This document shows, piece after piece, positions 25,089 through 64,000 of a DNA stretch of 64,000 nucleotides (position 1 is its first letter; every line of letters starts with the position of its first letter). The DNA comes from Bdellovibrionales bacterium. GTDB taxonomy: Bacteria; Bdellovibrionota; Bdellovibrionia; Bdellovibrionales; UBA1609. The stretch covers positions 118,027-182,026 of the forward strand of contig JAYUKW010000001.1 of the NCBI GenBank assembly GCA_043764155.1, written 5' to 3'. Both the position numbers and the translations under genes were made by a program. The notes beneath the pieces were generated by a model. It ran no database searches. It was not told where the DNA came from and saw nothing but the letters and a program-made list of their open reading frames with translations.

Positions 25089-25100
25089 ATTGACGAACCT

Positions 25101-25467
25101 GTAAGTTTCTCTTTAAGCCGGATTCTGTAACTTTAAAAATCGTCACAATTTTTAAAATCTAACCATCATTCCTCTAGGATTAAAGTTACCTTTAACCTCA
25201 AGCAATCTACCCGAAAACTGGTGCGAGCCGCACTCATAGCGTTTCCCTATTTGACCTTGCTTCGCGCAGAGTTTTGCTGTTTTCACTCCAACAGCTCCCC
25301 GAAGATCTCCCGTTCCCGATCTAAGGATCATAGCCTTGGACATTCTCTCTGTTCCACTGTTCCTCATCTTACGATGGAGGGGCGTTACCCCATGCGCTGC
25401 TCTACGAAGTCCGGACTTTCCTCCAAAATGGTTTAACCCATTTCAGCGATGGTCTTTCAAAACTTAC
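25101..25467 (-). ncRNA. rnpB: RNase P RNA (bacterial type A-like)
   Basis: The - strand contains GGAGGAAAGUCCGGAC (CR-I/P4 5'), GGUAACGCC, CAGUGGAACAGAGAG, GCAAGGUCAAAUAGGG, GGGUAGAUUGCUUGAG, CCUAGAGGAAUGA and ACAGAAUCCGGCUUA (P4 3'). P1 pairs GUAAGUUU with AAACUUAC; P2 pairs GACCAUC with GAUGGUU. Confidence 0.93.
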
Positions 25468-56932: not shown

Positions 56933-58960
56933 TTAATTCGTGTTATTTAATTCTATAACTTCAAAATCAGTCACAGGATGATCAATAAGTCCTTTCGGTG
57001 TTTGAAGATAAGTATGACCACCTAAAATCCCTAGACTTTGATTCATGAATTCAACAACTTGGGGAAAGCCTTTGTTTTTAGATAAGTAAACCCCTGTGTG
57101 GGACCATTTGTTTTTATTAATATCAAAACTATACACATCGTCGACATAATCTAAATCATTATTAGCTTCATCTTTTAAGATCATCCCACCTATTAAATAT
57201 ATTTTATTGTTTATAATACCAGCGCCTGGAGCAAACGTCGCAAATGGAAGTCTTGCTTTTTCTGACCATGATAAATTTTTAGTATTTAAAACGGTGACAT
57301 TATCAATCCAGTCAAAATGACTTACTCCTTGACCAATTCCACCCATCAAATAGATTTCATTATTTACACTTACAGCTGTGAACGCACGCCTCAAGGGGGC
57401 GGGTAGTGTTGTGGGTAATATCGAGACAGTTTCGGATTTTAAATCAAAAACTTCTATAGAGCTGTGAAAGCGACCGTTTTTGTCGCTTTCAAATTGAGGA
57501 GTGCTATCCCAGCCCCCGATTAAATACACTTTGTCATTCACAACAGCCAAGGCATTCGAAGATCTTGGACTTAAAAGCTTAACGGGTAAGATCTGCCACT
57601 GATTTGTTTTAATGTCATATCGTTCGATGGTGTTTACGGATTTCCACTTAGGTTTATGTACAGCACTAAAAGTAAAACCACCGAAGACATATATAAAATT
57701 ATTATAGGCGGCGATTTGGAAGCCATGTTTGGCCTCATTCATTGGCTTAAGCGTGACCCAAGTTTTTGATTTAATAGTGTAGGCCTGCAACAAATTTAAG
57801 AAAGACTCTTTAGGATAGGTGTGTTCAGGTCCCTGGTGACCACCAGCTATGTAGATTGTGTCATTGTATGTAACAGCTCCAAATGATGATCTTTCGGGCT
57901 TAGGTAAACTTGAAAGCACAGTTTTATTTAAATCTTCAGAATTAGAAAAAGAAACAACGTATTCGCTAGAAGCGGCATCATTTAAAAATGCAGTGGGTGC
58001 GCTTGCATTTGGTATAAAGTTTTTAAAATCTAGATCACGAATTGAATAAATATCGATCAGTGGGTTTGATGATGTGATTTCATTCGAATTTCCATTAAGG
58101 TTATCCGTAAATCTTGTAAAATAAATTTCATTATTAGATTTAAAAGTCGGGGTGAATTCCATTTCTACGTCATTGGTGACTTGAATTTTTTTTAGCGTCC
58201 ATAGATCAACAACAAAGATATCCCACTGGCCCCCATCTTGACTGACGAAAGCAACAAAGTGATCGTCTGGAGACAAGGATGGGAACATAGCGTGCTCGTC
58301 TTTAAGAGTCAGCTCCAATTCAGTCTGTGTGCTTCTATTGTAAGATATTAATTGCTTAGGCGCTTTTTTATCACTTTTATTTTCAGTGCGATGATAAATA
58401 ATTGTACTGCCGTCGGAAGAAACAGCGGGGGCATAACAGTCAAAAGGACTTTCTATGATTTCATATTTCGGGTTAAAAATATGGGTGGTTTGGTTTTTAA
58501 CAGTCTGAATAGAGGCAGGACCTAATGCTCTTTCCTTTTCTAAATCGACAACATAAATATTTTGTTTTAAATTTTTTGGATTCGGACCGCTAAAAACTAA
58601 ATACTTTTCATTCCCTGAAAACTCCACATGGATAAATTGATTTGCCTTTGGCGTCCAAACTTCTGTGATATTGTTTTTTAAGTCTTGGATCACTACTTCT
58701 AATTGAGTTTGACCACCAGGTTGAATTTTTCCTCTAGAATAAGCTAAAAATTGGCCTGAGGGACTTAAATCCGGGTGGTAGGTGTCTTCAGCTGGATTAG
58801 AAATCACAGTTTGATTTGTGCCGTCATTGTCTGCAAGAACAATAAGTCTTTGGGTGCCTATTTCTTTTTGAAAAGCTATTTTTGAAGACAGTTTTGCGGA
58901 CGAGGTGCAAGCCACTAAATTAATAGTGAAAGAAAAAATAATAAAAAAACAAAATTTCAT
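56933..58960 (-). CDS. lipoprotein with N-terminal TolB-like (PD40) beta-propeller and C-terminal Kelch-repeat propeller
   Basis: 675 aa; LVAC lipobox. PD40-like repeats: YHPDLSPSGQFLAYS, PAVSSDGSTIIY, FPSLSPDDHFVAFVS. Kelch-like repeats: IYIAGG, IYVFGG, VYLIGG, IYLMGG, IYLIGG. Confidence 0.7.
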   Translation of the reverse strand: MKFCFFIIFSFTINLVACTSSAKLSSKIAFQKEIGTQRLIVLADNDGTNQTVISNPAEDTYHPDLSPSGQFLAYSRGKIQPGGQTQLEVVIQDLKNNITEVWTPKANQFIHVEFSGNEKYLVFSGPNPKNLKQNIYVVDLEKERALGPASIQTVKNQTTHIFNPKYEIIESPFDCYAPAVSSDGSTIIYHRTENKSDKKAPKQLISYNRSTQTELELTLKDEHAMFPSLSPDDHFVAFVSQDGGQWDIFVVDLWTLKKIQVTNDVEMEFTPTFKSNNEIYFTRFTDNLNGNSNEITSSNPLIDIYSIRDLDFKNFIPNASAPTAFLNDAASSEYVVSFSNSEDLNKTVLSSLPKPERSSFGAVTYNDTIYIAGGHQGPEHTYPKESFLNLLQAYTIKSKTWVTLKPMNEAKHGFQIAAYNNFIYVFGGFTFSAVHKPKWKSVNTIERYDIKTNQWQILPVKLLSPRSSNALAVVNDKVYLIGGWDSTPQFESDKNGRFHSSIEVFDLKSETVSILPTTLPAPLRRAFTAVSVNNEIYLMGGIGQGVSHFDWIDNVTVLNTKNLSWSEKARLPFATFAPGAGIINNKIYLIGGMILKDEANNDLDYVDDVYSFDINKNKWSHTGVYLSKNKGFPQVVEFMNQSLGILGGHTYLQTPKGLIDHPVTDFEVIELNNTN

Positions 58961-59112
58961 AAAAATCCTCAGTTAAGTAAAATTAAAAAATTATTATTAA
59001 ACCGGTTAAAAAACGGATTTAATTTAGTCCTGAAATATAGACATAATGTTTAAATGATTTTGTACTAAAGTGAACGTTGCAGAAGGGCAATTGATCATTC
59101 AAAGAGTTTTGT

Positions 59113-60819
59113 ATGGTCTATATAAAAAAACTACTGCACAACGTTAATTGTAGGTTTAATAAAACTATTGTCTATACTCAGATTTTGATGAGTTCTGAAT
59201 ATGATAAGCCCTTCGGTGTTGTTTTAAAAAAATCCCTTTTTGGTATGAAAGAGTACACGTGGTCTCTGGTCATTTACACTGTTGCCATAGGGATTTTAAG
59301 TCTTGCAACACCAATCACTGTGCAGTCTCTAGTTAATACCTTTGCTTTGAGCACAGACGTAAAGCCTTTAGCAAATCTAAGTTTGATGTTACTTGTTCTG
59401 CTTATTTTTTATGGCTTTATTAAATCATTTCAATATATCACTGTAGAACTAATGCAACAGAAGCTGGTTGCACAGCTTTCAGTCGTTATTTCTAAAAAAG
59501 TCATCTTTGGTCCTAGGGCGGAATTCCAAAAGCATAACATCAGAGAAAAAGTAAATCGTTTCTTCGAAATCATCACAATTCAAAAATTAGTCGCGATGTT
59601 AGTAACAGACGGGCTTTCGATTTTAATTCAAACCTTTATTGGCTTAATTCTATTATCTTTGTATCACCCCTTTTTTATTCCGTTTAATATTTTGATTGCA
59701 GTCGTGATTGTTTTTGTATTTAGAACTTATAATTCAAAAGCAAAGATATCATCCATCAAAGAATCAACCGCAAAATTTGCTGTAGCTGGCTTTTTACAAG
59801 ATATTGCGGCGACTGAGTCCAGACTTCAAAATGAGGACATCTCTTTAAAACTAGCAAAGCATTCTGATAGTTTAATTCAAAATTATATTATAGAACGAAA
59901 AGAACATTTTAAAGTGCTCTTCTCTCAGAGTGTTATTTACTTAGCTCTCTACGCCGTTTTAAATGCGGCACTTTTGGGTTTGGGTGGATATCTAATCACT
60001 TTAGGTCAGCTTTCAGTGGGTCAGTTGGTCGCTGCAGAAATTATTATTAATGGAATATCAATACAACTTGTTTATGCGATGAAACACCTGCAGTTAGTTT
60101 ATGATCTTTACTCTAGTTGTGATAAGTTGAATTGGCTTATTGAAATTAAAGAAATTGCATTGTCTTGCGAAAATCAAAATATTAAAACTCTAAAAAATAC
60201 GAATGACATCGCTTTTGAGTTTAAAAATTTAAATATTGGGCTTGAAACTAAAATTCCAGTGAACTTAATGATTTCTCCTTCGTCATATCTAGAATTCAGA
60301 TATCATGACTCTAGACTAAAAGAGCAATTGATTGGCTTACTTCTTAAAAATGAAGAGCTTCGGGGTGGGGACATAAGCGTTGGCGGAATTAGCTACAAGG
60401 ATCTTTCAAGCCTTGAAGTTAGAAATCTTGTTCATAACATCGACGAGCCTATCGTATTTGAAGGCACTGTCAGAGAAAATCTATTGGACTTTGATCAGAC
60501 ATTAGATGTGTCATTTATTTACGAAGTTTTAAGAAAGTTTGATTTGGACGAGCGAATCTTAGCTTTTCCCAATCAATTAGATCAAAAGCTACATGCAGCG
60601 ACTGGGCTTTTAAGTTATAGTCAGAAATACAGATTAAGTTTAGCTCGAATCTATATTCATGAGCCAAGTTTACTAACTTTACAGACCACAAAAGAAATTT
60701 TTTATACTCCAGTCTTTAAGAAGTATATTATGGAATTTAAACAAAAAGGCTGTTCAGTTATAAGTTTCATCAATGATGAATCAATTTCAGAACTTTATGA
60801 TTTTAGAGAGTTAAATTAA
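59113..60819 (+). CDS. ABC-exporter-like protein (type I exporter TMD) with degenerate nucleotide-binding domain
   Basis: 568 aa; six-TM ABC_membrane-like domain. The C-terminal domain aligns by eye to an ABC NBD (FEGTVRENL, LSYSQKYRLSLARIY), but has no GxxGxGK[ST], LSYSQ in place of LSGGQ, and LLTLQT in place of the Walker B hhhhDE. An alternative start is at 59188. Confidence 0.65.
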   Translation: MVYIKKLLHNVNCRFNKTIVYTQILMSSEYDKPFGVVLKKSLFGMKEYTWSLVIYTVAIGILSLATPITVQSLVNTFALSTDVKPLANLSLMLLVLLIFYGFIKSFQYITVELMQQKLVAQLSVVISKKVIFGPRAEFQKHNIREKVNRFFEIITIQKLVAMLVTDGLSILIQTFIGLILLSLYHPFFIPFNILIAVVIVFVFRTYNSKAKISSIKESTAKFAVAGFLQDIAATESRLQNEDISLKLAKHSDSLIQNYIIERKEHFKVLFSQSVIYLALYAVLNAALLGLGGYLITLGQLSVGQLVAAEIIINGISIQLVYAMKHLQLVYDLYSSCDKLNWLIEIKEIALSCENQNIKTLKNTNDIAFEFKNLNIGLETKIPVNLMISPSSYLEFRYHDSRLKEQLIGLLLKNEELRGGDISVGGISYKDLSSLEVRNLVHNIDEPIVFEGTVRENLLDFDQTLDVSFIYEVLRKFDLDERILAFPNQLDQKLHAATGLLSYSQKYRLSLARIYIHEPSLLTLQTTKEIFYTPVFKKYIMEFKQKGCSVISFINDESISELYDFRELN

Positions 60820-61917
60820 ATGTCAAAAAAGCTTGAATCTTACAAAGACTATAAGAATTTTAAATCTGTAAAAATGGTGATAATTCCTCGTCCTGTGGAA
60901 GTATTATCAAAGCTTCTATTTGTATCCATGATTTTTCTTCTAATCTGTTTAGTTATCGTTCCTTGGAGACAGACGTCTAAAGGAACAGGACGAGTTATCG
61001 CTTTTGATCCAAACGAAAGAATTCAAATGATAACGGCCCCAGTATCGGGTGTTTTAGAAGAGTGGCTTATTAACGAAGGTCAAACAGTCAAAAAGGGCGA
61101 GCCCTTAGTTAGAATTGTAGATAACGATCCAAATTATTTAGAACGTTTAAAACTTGAAAGAGATGCTTCAATTAAAAAATATGAAGCGTCTAGATCTGCA
61201 AGTGAAGCCTCAATGTCTAATTACCAACGACAATTGTCTTTAGAAAAAGAAGGTTTAAGTTCAAGAAAAGATGTTGAAGCGGCAAAAATTACCTATCAAA
61301 AATTAATAGCAGAAGAAGCTGAGGCCGCGTCAGTCTTAGCTCAAAAAGAAGTTAAATTTTCAAGATGGCAGACTCAGCTTGTGACCGCACCGGCCGATGG
61401 AACTTTACTTCGAATTATGACCAGCTCGGGTGTGGTTAATATTAGTCAAGGTCAAGATCTAGCTTACTTTGTGCCGGATAGTAACGAACCAGCGGCAGAA
61501 GTTTATGTTGATGCTAACGATTTGCCATTAGTGTCTATGGGCCGCAAAGTCAGGCTGCAGTTCGAAGGCTGGCCGTCGATTCAGTTTAGTGGATTTCCAT
61601 CTGTGGCGATTGGTAGTTTTGGGGGGATAGTTAAGGCCATTGACCCTTCGGTTTCAGATAATGGTTTATTTCGAGTTTTAGTAGTTAAAGATCCTGAATC
61701 TTCTGAGCACTGGCCAAGCCAAATTTATTTAAGACAGGGGACAAGGGTTATTGGTCTAATTCTCCTTGACACAGTGTCCTTGGGTTATGAATTATGGCGC
61801 CAAGTGAATGGGTTTCCTAAATCAATGGATACATCTAAGCAAGATAGTTTTTATTTTAATTTAAAGGGTTCAAGAGTAAAAGATGAAAAACCAGAATCAG
61901 AAACTAAAGAGCAATAA
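60820..61917 (+). CDS. HlyD-family membrane-fusion (periplasmic adaptor) protein
   Basis: 365 aa; N-terminal TM; lipoyl-like GQTVKKGEPLVRI; coiled-coil segment; starts 1 nt after the ABC gene stop. Confidence 0.8.
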   Translation: MSKKLESYKDYKNFKSVKMVIIPRPVEVLSKLLFVSMIFLLICLVIVPWRQTSKGTGRVIAFDPNERIQMITAPVSGVLEEWLINEGQTVKKGEPLVRIVDNDPNYLERLKLERDASIKKYEASRSASEASMSNYQRQLSLEKEGLSSRKDVEAAKITYQKLIAEEAEAASVLAQKEVKFSRWQTQLVTAPADGTLLRIMTSSGVVNISQGQDLAYFVPDSNEPAAEVYVDANDLPLVSMGRKVRLQFEGWPSIQFSGFPSVAIGSFGGIVKAIDPSVSDNGLFRVLVVKDPESSEHWPSQIYLRQGTRVIGLILLDTVSLGYELWRQVNGFPKSMDTSKQDSFYFNLKGSRVKDEKPESETKEQ

Positions 61918-63346
61918 ATATTTCTTTTATACTAATAATATTTTGATATTGAGTTTAATTTTTACAACTCAAGTTTTTGCTTCAAAAACTAGTTTAAATA
62001 ACGGAGCTGATACATTCAGTCTTTATCAAGTCATTGCATCAACGTTTAAACATCATCCGATGATTATGTCTCAAATGAAAGAGTTAGATCAAGCCAAACA
62101 GTATGTAAGGCAAAGTCTTGGGGCATTTGATTTGAATTTAAAATCAGATGCACAAGGCTATACAGACGGCTACTATGATGGCCAGGCTTTTAATGTTTTT
62201 TTAGAGAAACCCTTGTTTTATTTAAATTCGAAAGCCTACGCAGGGTACAGAAAGTCAGATGGGACATTTCCTGTTTATAACGATCAGCTTACAACATTAA
62301 GTGAAGGTGAAGCCTTTGCCGGCGCTATGATTTCGCTTCTCAGGGATCGTTCCATTGACGATAAAAGATTTAAAAATATTATTGCAAGGCAAAATCTCGT
62401 TCAGTCAGAACTAGAATTAAAAAATCAATATGTAGAGCTTCAAACAATGGCTGCCAATGCCTATTATAAATGGCTAAGTCATTTAGAAAAAGTCAGGGTT
62501 CAAATCGAATTGCTAAGTCTAGCTGAAAGCCGCGTACAAAATTTCTCCACTCGAATAAGAAAGGGAGATTTGGCTAAAATTTATGGACTAGAAAACGAAC
62601 AGTATATTTTGAAACGTCAAATAAATCTAAATCAAGATAAGCAAAAACTTTACCAAGCTTCTTTATATCTTTCGCTATTTTATCGGGACTCGAACGGAAG
62701 TCCAATTATTATAAAAGAATCAAATTTAACTAAAATGGGCGAATTAAAAAATAAAAAAGTTAAAGACCCAATTGAGCTTTTAAACTTAGTGAATGCTCAA
62801 GATCTGATGATTCAAAACTTACAAAGCCAAATTCAACAGACTGTAGCGGATCGTAAAATGGGTTATAATGAACTATTACCTAAGTTAGATTTAAAATATG
62901 AAATCAGTGATGACAGCGGGGCTGGAAATACAAATCTTGATCCCTTACAGCAAAGCGTATATTTAAACATGGCCCTACCTATAGAAAGAAGATTGGGTCA
63001 GGGTCGGTTGAATGCAGCCAAAGCCAAGCGTGAGGCACTAGAAATCAAAATAAAATTTAAAAAAGAAAAAAACCAAATAGAAGTGATGTCTTTACTAAAT
63101 AATTTAAAACTTTTTAAACAAAATTATGAACTCACTCAAAAACAAATTGGTCTTGCTGATAAACTTAGGGATTCAGAAATCATTAAATTCAACAAAGGGG
63201 CGAGTGATTTTATCTTAGTGAATCTTAGAGAAGAGAACTTTGCAGAAAGTAAAATTAAAAACATTAAGGCTTATTTAGATTATAATCGCAATTTTGTAGA
63301 ACTTCAGCGCTTAGCCGTCGATTTAATTATTCCAATTCCAAATTAG
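61883..63346 (+). CDS. TolC-family outer-membrane channel protein
   Basis: 487 aa; signal peptide; two-repeat coiled-coil/beta pattern typical of outer-membrane efflux proteins; overlaps the HlyD gene end. Confidence 0.7.
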   Translation: MKNQNQKLKSNKYFFYTNNILILSLIFTTQVFASKTSLNNGADTFSLYQVIASTFKHHPMIMSQMKELDQAKQYVRQSLGAFDLNLKSDAQGYTDGYYDGQAFNVFLEKPLFYLNSKAYAGYRKSDGTFPVYNDQLTTLSEGEAFAGAMISLLRDRSIDDKRFKNIIARQNLVQSELELKNQYVELQTMAANAYYKWLSHLEKVRVQIELLSLAESRVQNFSTRIRKGDLAKIYGLENEQYILKRQINLNQDKQKLYQASLYLSLFYRDSNGSPIIIKESNLTKMGELKNKKVKDPIELLNLVNAQDLMIQNLQSQIQQTVADRKMGYNELLPKLDLKYEISDDSGAGNTNLDPLQQSVYLNMALPIERRLGQGRLNAAKAKREALEIKIKFKKEKNQIEVMSLLNNLKLFKQNYELTQKQIGLADKLRDSEIIKFNKGASDFILVNLREENFAESKIKNIKAYLDYNRNFVELQRLAVDLIIPIPN

Positions 63347-63402: not shown

Positions 63403-64000
63403 TGAAAGATATATTAAGTCTAAAGCATGATTTTAAATCCTCAGTCGTAGTCTTTTTAGTCGCACTTCCGCTTTGTTTGGGAATCTCTTTGGCCTCAGGA
63501 GCTCCACTTTTTTCTGGAATTCTTTCAGGTATTATTGGTGGTGTGATTGTTGGTTTTATTAGTAATTCTAAAACTAGTGTCTCGGGCCCCGCGGCAGGAT
63601 TAACTGTTATTGTATTGGGCGCGATTAATACACTTGGTGACTTTTATTTATTTACAGTAGCTGTTTTTTTAGCAGGATGTATTCAAATTTTATTGGGTGC
63701 TTTTAAAGCTGGAGAACTTGGTGGATATTTTCCCAACTCGGTGATCAAAGGAATGTTAGCTGCTATTGGGATAATTCTGATTTTAAAACAAATTCCACAC
63801 GCCTTAGGTTTTGATGTGGACTATATGGGGGACGAATCTTTTTTTCAAATAGATGGTGAAAACACATTTTCAGAAATTTTAAAGGCTTTTAAGTATTTAA
63901 ATTTAAGTGCAGTGATGATTTCTTTTTTATCACTGGCTGCTCTTTTTTTATGGGATATAATAAATAAATCTAAGAAATATTCATTTTTTAATAATGTCCC
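63403..64000 (+). CDS. SulP-family inorganic anion transporter (5' part, truncated by the window end)
   Basis: My own translation from the TTG at 63403: [71 protein letters not shown], a typical SulP N-terminus. Open to the window end; not in the supplied track. Confidence 0.7.

Follow-up and report, generated by a model that had tools for sequence, protein, structure and literature searches.

Three tightly packed genes on the + strand encode an ABC-exporter-fold protein (ORF1), a HlyD/MacA-type adaptor (ORF2) and a TolC-type channel (ORF3), and the nucleotide-binding domain (NBD) of ORF1 has kept its fold with every catalytic motif changed. Our preferred reading, to which we assign a probability of about 0.55, is that the trio forms a functional, autonomous tripartite duct that spans the envelope and is independent of ATP hydrolysis in cis. 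NBD catalysis has here been lost naturally, in an ancient and selected change, inside a tripartite export system. New here are relatives that lack the NBD and are fused to the adaptor, further lineages with dead NBDs, cassettes that stand alone, and an Agl-Glt-like cluster adjoining the trio in orthologues.

Gene order and predicted fold

The window (the whole stretch of DNA that was analysed, 64 kb) contains the following features of the locus:

58961..59187, no strand: upstream intergenic/leader region, divergent from a Kelch/PD40 lipoprotein gene
59113..60819, + strand: ORF1, ABC-exporter-fold gene with pseudo-NBD (longest ORF, 568 aa)
59188..60147, + strand: transmembrane domain (TMD) of ORF1, six long helices, type-IV ABC exporter type (DSSP of the AlphaFold2 model)
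59554-59586, + strand: TMD segment NRFFEIITIQK
59812-59835, + strand: coupling-helix-2 region of the TMD, TESRLQNE
60004-60039, + strand: TMD segment GQLSVGQLVAAE
60148..60213, + strand: TMD-NBD linker, poorly conserved (mean pairwise identity 25.9%)
60214..60816, + strand: pseudo-NBD of ORF1 (alignments, Pfam, AlphaFold2 model)
60820..61917, + strand: ORF2, membrane fusion protein (periplasmic adaptor; Pfam and PDB sequence matches)
61883..63346, + strand: ORF3, TolC-type outer-membrane factor with an N-terminal signal-peptide-like segment (Pfam OEP)

The ORF layout and the Pfam domains agree with the original prediction of a tightly coupled, type-I-secretion-like ABC/HlyD/TolC operon. The ATG of ORF2 directly abuts the stop codon (TAA) of ORF1, and the last 35 nt of ORF2 are shared with ORF3. 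Since the orthologues of ORF1 (about 543 aa, two of them with a GTG start) begin at the equivalent of position 59188, the ATG at this position (MSSEYDKP...) is likely to be the true start, giving a putative protein of 543 aa. The promoter of the trio is presumed to lie in 58961..59187, but promoter-like matches in this region were not commoner than in shuffled sequence and no promoter was identified.

The AlphaFold2 model of ORF1 (pLDDT 84.1, pTM 0.74) has a complete type-IV exporter fold including the NBD, and Foldseek aligned it to PCAT1, TM287/288, HlyB, TmrAB and PrtD with TMq values of 0.77-0.87 over about 540 columns. DSSP of the model places the TMD helices at residues 9-38, 40-54, 59-107, 118-159, 163-208, 216-271 and 277-318. 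The pseudo-NBD is predicted to have the beta/alpha secondary structure of an NBD (pLDDT 80-93), with the helix after the P-loop position intact. As TM1 begins about 20 residues past the conserved start, there is no room for a C39 domain at the N-terminus, and none was found in ORF1; nor is any obvious substrate gene adjacent to the trio, both as had been anticipated.

ORF2 consists of an N-terminal cytoplasmic tail, one TM helix, a lipoyl domain, an alpha-hairpin and a beta-barrel. It matches the Pfam families HlyD_3 (5.5e-13), HlyD_D23 and Biotin_lipoyl_2, and a sequence search of the PDB returned MacA (4dk0, 1e-7), EmrA and HlyD (8dck_C). ORF3 begins with MKNQ...ILILSLIFTTQVFA, matches Pfam OEP (79.9 bits, 2.8e-22, split over two stretches) and shares 67% identity with the third gene in an orthologue locus (L009). 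For a complex of the three proteins, the inference rests on gene order and homology alone.

Degenerate motifs of the pseudo-NBD and their conservation

Motif columns were defined by a HMMER alignment to Sav1866 and by MAFFT alignments to relatives with an intact Walker A:

60301-60327, + strand: Walker A remnant, GxxGxGKST replaced by YHDSRLKEQ
60442-60483, + strand: Q-loop region DEPIVFEGTVRENL, Q replaced by E
60610-60654, + strand: signature region LSYSQ..., LSGGQ replaced by LSYSQ
60670-60687, + strand: Walker B remnant, hhhhDE replaced by LLTLQT
60763-60783, + strand: H-loop region SFINDES, H replaced by N

All peptide strings quoted in the original prediction are present in ORF1, and its assignments for the signature, Walker B, Q-loop and H-loop were reproduced in both kinds of alignment, as was the colinearity with canonical NBDs; no hidden intact Walker A or B emerged. 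It had reported that GK[ST] is lacking, and in fact not even the dipeptide GK occurs anywhere in ORF1. Walker A keeps its lysine but has lost all three P-loop glycines as well as the Ser/Thr that coordinates Mg. In ORF1 and its orthologues, Gln or Glu stands in place of the Walker B Asp. ORF1 scores 19.8 bits against Pfam ABC_tran (gathering score 25), and the match covers only profile positions 27-132, past the P-loop. Departures from the canonical Q-loop, signature and H-loop are also seen in most of the Walker-A-intact relatives, and the H-loop position is His in most orthologues. From the sequence alone, without any experiment, it cannot be ruled out that a non-canonical pocket binds ATP, because the Walker A lysine and a conserved D-S-R-x-K-E-Q remain.

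The degenerate pattern, Y[HNIK]DSR[LIV]KEQ / LS[YH]SQ / LL[TMI][ILV][QE]x, is shared by 15 Bdellovibrionales orthologues (57-71% identity, P0013 being the most divergent member). Across 13 orthologues, mean pairwise identity is 74.5% for the TMD and 58.4% for the pseudo-NBD, with only 3 gapped columns, against the 25.9% of the linker. The pseudo-NBD has dN values of 0.125-0.35 with saturated dS, and the linker evolves nearly neutrally (dN 0.22-1.39). Judged from these substitution patterns, the pseudo-NBD is clearly under purifying selection. At face value, the loss of all catalytic motifs would fit a gene in decay, on its way to becoming a pseudogene. The frame is intact, however, both in ORF1 and in every orthologue gene whose DNA was examined, none of which carries a frameshift; the degenerate motifs are themselves conserved, dN is far below saturated dS next to a nearly neutral linker, and the fold is confidently predicted. 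We saw no sign of relaxed selection and rejected the pseudogene, which is effectively refuted.

Several polar and charged TMD residues (E112, D166, H185, E217, K221, R262, H265, E309 and D331) are kept in all three classes, whether dead, fused or Walker-A-intact. TESRLQNE does not vary within the clade, yet it is not preserved in the single NBD-less fusion compared, and the ICL1 motif NR[FY]F[ED] is retained even in such fusions.

NBD-less relatives, genomic neighbourhood and possible energy sources

In a TMD tree (neighbour-joining, midpoint-rooted, no support values), the nearest group comprises proteins in which the NBD is deleted and the TMD is fused directly to the adaptor (at least 45 full-length protein clusters), with a linker of about 25-30 residues in place of the NBD. 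Compared to ORF1 and ORF2, the TMD of the fusion is 42% identical, and its C-terminal half (in P0062) aligns with ORF2 gap-free at 56% identity. The fusion is modelled with 6+1 TM helices followed by the adaptor. All three fusion loci examined consist of the fusion and an OEP gene only, without an adjoining ATPase. Moreover, at least five other lineages carry dead NBDs, each with its own internally conserved motif set and all in the identical three-gene cassette; they include Erythrobacter/Porphyrobacter, Gammaproteobacteria, Myxococcales and Planctomycetes, and their residues at the Walker A and B positions are entirely different from those of the ORF1 clade.

Since the cytoplasmic cassette is catalytically dead, we infer that the pump probably needs no ATP hydrolysis from its ABC subunit. 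ORF1 would sit in the inner membrane as a dimer of type-IV ABC exporter fold, inferred to be a homodimer, and form a duct with the adaptor and the channel; this duct would descend from peptide or protein exporters of the PCAT/T1SS kind. Its cassette would have become a pseudo-NBD that selection keeps as a structural or regulatory module and not as an engine, docked on the coupling helices and probably dimeric. The conserved TMD would be the working part, and adaptor and channel the exit path. The 1:1 ratio of TMD to adaptor in the fusions agrees with the reported three HlyB dimers and six HlyD (PMC11026475; 8dck contains six HlyD chains) and counts for this arrangement. Proton-motive force or a substrate gradient would most likely drive the duct, but energy source and substrate remain speculative: nothing points directly to proton coupling, and the conserved acidic and His residues of the TMD are common to Walker-A-intact relatives.

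The original prediction left three options, a pseudo-ATPase scaffold, a partner encoded elsewhere or a differently energised exporter. Our evidence favours the first and the last over a partner because close relatives have shed the NBD and joined TMD and adaptor in one protein, because almost all of the roughly 50 loci sampled across phyla have a single ABC gene per ABC-MFP-OMF cassette, which in most of them stands alone without a partner ABC gene beside it (further NBD genes in the vicinity are rare and lack conservation), and because a heterodimer would still have no canonical ATP site, one site lacking the P-loop and the other having a Tyr/Ser-substituted signature. In addition, an NBD dimer is impossible for the NBD-less fusions, and no ORF with both a Walker A and an ABC signature was found in the 64-kb window or in the next 10 kb downstream, consistent with the earlier statement that no second ABC gene is adjacent. 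Heterodimerisation of ORF1 with an intact half-transporter, or docking of a separate NBD on its coupling helices, after the model of TM287/288, TmrAB and CFTR with their one degenerate site, is therefore unlikely. It is not excluded, since the genome was inspected only over these 64 kb and 10 kb; moreover, heterodimers with a degenerate site are common among exporters (PMC7756269), conservation extends to the signature-like LS[YH]SQ and the helical subdomain, and the ICL1 motif persists without an NBD. That a pseudo-NBD which binds a nucleotide or other ligand without hydrolysis acts as a switch or sensor opening and closing the duct is improbable. The retained lysine, the polar cluster at the P-loop position and the predicted helix behind it would suit such a role, and degenerate sites of CFTR and ABCC1 hold ATP for minutes (PMC7756269), but the P-loop glycines, the Mg ligand and the Walker B Asp are replaced, other dead lineages have unrelated residues there, and the fusions lack the domain altogether.

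The neighbourhood of the orthologues offers another possible source of energy. At each of the seven other orthologue loci, ExbB-ExbD-ExbD genes lie immediately upstream of the trio in the same orientation, separated from it by a gap of 78-281 bp, so that ExbD of an Agl-Glt-like cluster occupies the position of 58961..59187, and no terminator-like site was found in this gap in the two loci tested. Where the contig reaches further upstream, TPR(~500)-TPR(~1280)-small(~87)-FHA(~740) genes precede these, which fit GltE, GltD, GltF and GltG in size and Pfam domains (Luciano 2011, PMC3169522); downstream neighbours vary. The Bdellovibrionales duct might thus be coupled to, or part of, an Agl-Glt-like proton-driven ExbB/ExbD motor (GltE-GltD-GltF-GltG-AglR-AglQ-AglS homologues) that energises it or uses it as a trans-envelope element. 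We regard this as unlikely: the block is missing from the window, where tblastn finds only the trio, and from the 10 kb downstream; fusion, LWSSQ-type and Walker-A-intact loci stand alone without it; and the adjacency may be inherited synteny of two independent operons. A role outside transport, as an envelope tether or assembly platform whose ABC fold merely anchors the adaptor in the inner membrane, is very improbable. Relatives do dispense with the NBD, and a TMD-adaptor fusion resembles an elaborately anchored adaptor (NCBI names several 'HlyD family efflux transporter periplasmic adaptor subunit'). However, no part is better conserved than the TMD, whose helices bear invariant polar residues along their length; this is unexpected for a simple anchor, and ordinary adaptors are already anchored by one TM helix.

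Comparison with known systems

The ABC-MFP-OMF gene order of the trio is that of the PCAT/T1SS exporters (PCAT1, ComA, HlyB/HlyD/TolC, PrtD), and ORF1 shares the type-IV TMD and NBD fold with PCAT1 (TMq 0.77-0.84), HlyB (8dck, 0.81) and PrtD (0.81). Its best sequence models are NHLM_micro_ABC1, bacteriocin_ABC and type_I_sec_PrtD, with all NCBIfam scores at least 7-fold below the cut-offs. Unlike these exporters, ORF1 has neither catalytic motifs nor a C39 or C39-like domain nor an adjacent substrate gene, and in its whole superfamily conservation is higher in the TMD than in the NBD, the opposite of ordinary ABC transporters. For Agl-Glt gliding or 'core complex' clusters (Myxococcus, Bdellovibrio), which the trio adjoins in the seven orthologue loci and not in the window, no ABC, HlyD or TolC component is described in the literature examined, and 'ABC' has 0 occurrences in PMC3169522.

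The heterodimeric exporters TM287/288, TmrAB, TAP and CFTR have a fold similar to that of ORF1 and likewise keep a non-consensus Walker B, H-loop and signature under selection. In these, degeneracy is confined to one composite site, ATP binding by the P-loop is always retained and the partner supplies a consensus site, whereas in ORF1 the P-loop is gone, no partner gene is linked and a homodimer would have two dead composite sites. A precedent for the proposed duct is LmrA engineered to lack its NBD (LmrA-MD): like ORF1, it is an ABC exporter TMD dimer without a working NBD, and in the absence of ATP it was shown to act as a proton-coupled secondary translocator (PMC2704374). It is, however, a laboratory truncation of an active Gram-positive ATPase without adaptor or channel; the loss in ORF1 arose naturally within a tripartite system, and proton coupling is not shown for it. 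EmrAB-TolC (MFS) and AcrAB-TolC (RND) combine an adaptor and a TolC-type channel as the trio does, and ORF2 is related to EmrA as well as to MacA and HlyD, with sub-threshold similarity to the RND_mfp and EmrA models. Their inner-membrane component works without ATP hydrolysis, as ORF1 would in the proposed duct, but has an MFS or RND fold in place of the ABC exporter fold.

Gene trio and motif columns of ORF1

The ABC-exporter-fold protein ORF1 is encoded together with a HlyD/MacA-type adaptor (MFP, ORF2) and a TolC-type channel (OMF, ORF3), as in a type I secretion system. The ATG of ORF2 immediately follows the stop codon of ORF1, and ORF2 and ORF3 overlap by 35 nt.

Features of the window:
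59113-60819, + strand: ORF1, ABC-exporter-fold protein, co-directional with ORF2 and ORF3
60820-61917, + strand: ORF2, adaptor, Pfam HlyD_3, HlyD_D23 and Biotin_lipoyl_2
61883-63346, + strand: ORF3, channel, Pfam OEP (79.9 bits)
56933-58960, - strand: Kelch/PD40 lipoprotein-like gene (675 aa), divergent, upstream of ORF1
63403-64000, + strand: SulP-family transporter gene, downstream of the trio, TTG start (14290-16057 in L010, a longer contig)
25098-25466, - strand: RNase P RNA, bacterial class A (207.5 bits)

A protein search identified 15 orthologues with 57-71% identity to ORF1. They are about 543 aa long and start at the equivalent of 59188 (with GTG in two cases). Judged from the sequence, the ATG at 59188 is probably the true start of ORF1, and the start set by the ORF caller probably lies too far upstream. 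The first 25 codons of the longest ORF1 (59113-59187) have no conserved counterpart in the orthologues. The protein encoded upstream combines PD40 (TolB-like) repeats with a subsequent Kelch beta-propeller, which is unusual, and its gene is not conserved beside the trio in other loci. In the longer contig L010, a 52-aa fragment weakly similar to carbonic anhydrase comes after the SulP gene, possibly a truncated SulP-associated enzyme of this kind. No tRNA genes were found in the 64-kb window, and scans for promoters and terminators were uninformative, with match counts no higher than in shuffled sequence.

ORF1 scored 19.8 bits against ABC_tran (PF00005), below the Pfam gathering score of 25, and the match was limited to profile positions 27-132, leaving the P-loop end of the model unmatched. 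The best NCBIfam models (NHLM_micro_ABC1, bacteriocin_ABC and type_I_sec_PrtD) all remained far below their cut-offs. There was no Pfam match to PF00664 (ABC_membrane) at E<=1; a precomputed match exists for several orthologues. The motif columns were defined by aligning ORF1 to Sav1866 with HMMER and to P-loop-intact relatives with MAFFT.

Motif columns of ORF1 (motif; canonical form; ORF1)
Walker A; GxxGxGKST; YHDSRLKEQ (Lys kept, three Gly and Ser/Thr lost)
Q-loop; Q; E
Signature; LSGGQ; LSYSQ
Walker B; hhhhDE; LLTLQT
H-loop; H; N

The P-loop pattern G-x(4)-G-K-[ST] is absent from ORF1, which lacks even a GK dipeptide. The original prediction had claimed the loss of any GK[ST] and the same changes in signature, Walker B, Q-loop and H-loop; the aligned columns agree with it in each position, and all peptide strings that it quoted are present in ORF1. 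The proper alignment that it called for likewise revealed no intact Walker A or B. A Walker motif hidden by misalignment can be ruled out, as HMMER against Sav1866, MAFFT and the regex search agree. An ORF1 homodimer would have two sites without P-loop, Walker B aspartate or catalytic glutamate. ATP hydrolysis by the ABC component, which energises export in type I secretion, is not supported here, since the catalytic motifs are absent; this statement rests on sequence only. As predicted, ORF1 also has no C39 peptidase or C39-like domain, as found in PCAT-type exporters: no peptidase match was obtained, and only about 20-45 residues precede TM1.

Conservation and predicted fold of the degenerate cassette

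The orthologues present in GTDB stem from MAGs of Bdellovibrionales/Pseudobdellovibrionaceae. Nearly all orthologues, of which P0013 is the most divergent, keep the same degenerate pattern (Y[HNIK]DSR[LIV]KEQ, LS[YH]SQ and LL[TMI][ILV][QE]x), and most have His at the H-loop position. Mean pairwise identity was 74.5% for the transmembrane domain (TMD), 58.4% for the NBD-like domain (with 3 gapped columns) and 25.9% for the 22-residue linker. For the eight genes with available DNA, dN was 0.10-0.21 in the TMD, 0.125-0.35 in the NBD-like domain and 0.22-1.39 in the linker. Because synonymous sites were saturated in every pair of these genes, even at 84% amino acid identity, we report dN per domain in comparison to the nearly neutral linker and no formal dN/dS. 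The coupling-helix-2 region TESRLQNE is invariant within the orthologue clade. These comparisons show that purifying selection on the dead cassette is strong, and their pattern indicates that the cassette still docks on the TMD. The original prediction had left selection or decay to be decided by the motifs of the orthologues, and the outcome is selection. Conserved motifs, identity per domain and dN relative to the linker rule out pseudogene decay of ORF1, to which we attach next to no weight.

The AlphaFold2 model of ORF1 (65-sequence alignment, mean pLDDT 84.1, pTM 0.74) has six long TM helices and, after them, a beta/alpha domain; the pseudo-NBD reaches pLDDT values of 80-93. In a Foldseek search against the PDB, about 540 of the 543 residues aligned to full-length type-IV ABC exporters (TMq 0.77-0.87), with PCAT1, TM287/288, HlyB in the HlyB/D complex (8dck), TmrAB, PrtD and ComA among the matches. 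Model and fold matches agree with a type-IV TMD, with six long TM helices reaching into the cytoplasm and two coupling helices, to which a RecA-like plus helical subdomain fold is attached via the coupling helices. The structure prediction that had been suggested as a check thus returns an NBD fold for the NBD-like region. Because this exporter fold is predicted with the motifs lost, the cassette of ORF1 is, according to the model, an NBD in shape and not in chemistry.

Relatives with other dead cassettes or without a cassette

A scan of GTDB representative genomes resulted in 53 loci from many phyla, and local HMM annotation gave the order TMD(+/-NBD)-MFP-OEP in nearly all of them. The superfamily is distributed over Bdellovibrionota, Alpha- and Gammaproteobacteria, Myxococcota, Planctomycetota and Verrucomicrobiota. 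A metagenome scan with the single protein P0007 yielded only two distant, irrelevant loci. Motif extraction identified several further lineages without a P-loop, each internally conserved.

Motifs of further lineages without a P-loop (lineage; Walker A; signature; Walker B)
Erythrobacter/Porphyrobacter; ASHHGVQRL; LSAVE; ILVLSRL
'LWSSQ' group, Bdellovibrionales and others; no P-loop; LWSSQ; not canonical
Gammaproteobacteria; DKQYNVKQV; LSVSE; VLILGEM
Myxococcales; GGRGKRL; WSTSM; -
Planctomycetaceae; ADELNGTSL; -; -

The Erythrobacter/Porphyrobacter form carries the NCBI name 'ABC transporter transmembrane domain-containing protein', and the LWSSQ-type locus examined is a stand-alone trio. Other relatives have the Walker A lysine replaced in otherwise good P-loops (GENGAGASA, GDNGAGATA and AAAGYGAST; proteins P0021, P0028, P0030 and P0048, loci L035 and L042), and many show D-G or D-S instead of D-E in Walker B and no H-loop His. 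As far as these motifs indicate, ATPase degeneration is graded across the superfamily.

In ordinary ABC transporters the NBD is normally the best conserved part. In this superfamily the order is reversed: both inside each group and from group to group the TMD exceeds the NBD in conservation, also where Walker A is intact. Its polar residues E112, D166, Y184-H185, E217, K221, R262, H265, E309 and D331 are kept whatever the status of the NBD. A comparison for TMD residues confined to the dead and fused classes, which could have hinted at proton coupling, yielded none; the conserved polar ones are common to the Walker-A-intact classes.

In a further class the same TMD is fused to the adaptor and the NBD is deleted, giving proteins of about 650-685 aa (P0062, P0020, P0045, P0046, P0081, P0089, P0109, P0119 and P0122-P0165). 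There are at least 45 full-length fusion clusters, some of them named Bdellovibrionales. In P0062, residues 8-329 share 42% identity with the TMD of ORF1. A linker of about 25-30 residues follows, and residues 338-663 then align without a gap to ORF2 residues 11-336 (56% identity). The AlphaFold2 model of a fusion (pLDDT 74.6) has six TM helices, a short cytoplasmic linker and a seventh TM helix followed by lipoyl, alpha-hairpin and beta-barrel domains. The three fusion loci examined (L003, L004 and L069) contain only the fusion and an OEP gene; an OEP gene also follows the fusion in two more loci among the GTDB matches (L032 and L047). A neighbour-joining tree of the TMD, without support values, places the fusions as sister group to the window's clade. 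Database names of the fusions vary ('biotin carboxyl carrier protein', 'multidrug resistance efflux pump', 'HlyD family adaptor'). In a Limisphaerales MAG (L034, 9920-11873) the TMD is a separate ORF of about 330 aa without NBD and the adaptor that follows is split over two ORFs, which could reflect either a frameshift in the assembly or a third arrangement. Three HlyB dimers were reported to combine with six HlyD (PMC11026475); the 1:1 fusion of TMD and adaptor fits this ratio and gives independent evolutionary support for the 6:6 HlyB:HlyD stoichiometry.

Proposed energisation and relation to known exporters

We propose that the products of the trio form a complex of ABC-fold dimer, adaptor and TolC-like duct, that the duct may act independently of ATP hydrolysis by the ORF1 subunit, and that the role of the pseudo-NBD may be that of a structural or regulatory clamp. 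The most economical, albeit speculative, energy source would be proton-motive force, used via the TMD; the engineered LmrA-MD, a proton-coupled translocator without ATP, provides a precedent (PMC2704374). The most far-reaching reading, to which we assign a probability of about 35%, is an undescribed, widespread superfamily of ABC-fold/MFP/OMF exporters with a conserved TMD engine and an optional NBD, either dead or deleted in adaptor fusions. These would be natural secondary-active exporters, driven by proton-motive force or otherwise without ATP, and in one Bdellovibrionales clade the duct is perhaps also wired to an ExbB/ExbD motor of the Agl-Glt type.

The duct could instead be energised by an ATPase acting in trans, which we consider unlikely, though the least so of the alternatives. 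As the original prediction had stated, no second ABC gene is adjacent: an ORF with both Walker A and ABC signature was found neither in the 64-kb window nor 10 kb downstream. Heterodimeric exporters with one degenerate site normally have the gene for the consensus half-transporter next to them. No second half-transporter is conserved beside the cassette in about 50 loci, and other NBD genes occur near it only occasionally, never in a conserved position (53 GTDB loci). A partner nearby is rejected on these grounds; the rest of the genome was outside the search. With an intact partner, a heterodimer would, from its motifs, have one site without P-loop and another with a Tyr/Ser-substituted signature. 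Type I systems usually have a linked cognate substrate, either an RTX or C-terminal signal protein or a GG-leader peptide. No obvious substrate gene was recognised next to the trio, as had been claimed: no neighbour is conserved across loci or annotated as candidate substrate, at the level of Pfam gene annotation, which does not exclude a substrate encoded elsewhere.

A link of the duct to Agl-Glt, the gliding motor cluster of Myxococcus and Bdellovibrio, is slightly less probable still. In its favour, MotA/ExbB(227)-ExbD(158)-ExbD(201) lie directly upstream of the trio, on the same strand and with a gap of 78-281 bp, in all seven other orthologue loci (L009 (1-7837), L001, L007, L008, L066, L067 and L068). 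Where the contig reaches further, they are preceded by TPR(about 500)-TPR(about 1280)-small(about 87)-FHA(about 740; FHA/YscD), while the short contig L066 shows only the ExbB-ExbD-ExbD part; downstream neighbours vary. In size and domain content the genes correspond to GltE, GltD, GltF, GltG and AglRQS in the table of Luciano et al. 2011 (PMC3169522), and four such clusters were reported for Bdellovibrio (PMC2797640). Tblastn rules out the block in the window, however, and it is also missing at fusion, LWSSQ and intact-class loci, so that functional coupling remains a minority hypothesis specific to the orthologue clade. The pseudo-NBD could also be a non-hydrolytic ligand switch, an idea we hold to be a little weaker again; a non-transport role of the complex appears very improbable.

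The ORF1 lineage reverses the usual ABC pattern. It has a cassette that is dead yet selected, relatives carry different dead versions, and the closest ones discard the cassette and weld the TMD to the adaptor. If the duct still exports, the membrane domain of an ABC exporter can work in nature without ATP, which bears on the long-running debate on ion coupling in LmrA/MsbA and would define a new energisation class for tripartite efflux and secretion. On the superfamily reading, nature would hold in these exporters an in vivo equivalent of the engineered LmrA-MD, intermediate between primary and secondary transport. The question is open to experiment because carriers such as Porphyrobacter, Erythrobacter and Polymorphobacter are in culture. 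The genes are mislabelled by automated annotation, for example as 'HlyD family adaptor', 'ABC transport system ATP-binding protein' or 'biotin carboxyl carrier protein'.

Literature searches, which also covered the T1SS of Bdellovibrio and the neighbours of gliding clusters, turned up no account of T1SS-like or tripartite systems whose ABC component is ATPase-dead or lacks the NBD. A review of degenerate sites covers only transporters that keep one consensus site (PMC7756269), and the SecA_DEAD/Peptidase_M50/HlyD module (PMC4452313) belongs to another kind of system. What defines an ABC transporter is that its cassette hydrolyses ATP. The trio has architecture and ancestry in common with tripartite exporters of the T1SS/PCAT type, but has lost their defining ATPase; it goes beyond an altered exporter of this type only if a different energisation is demonstrated.
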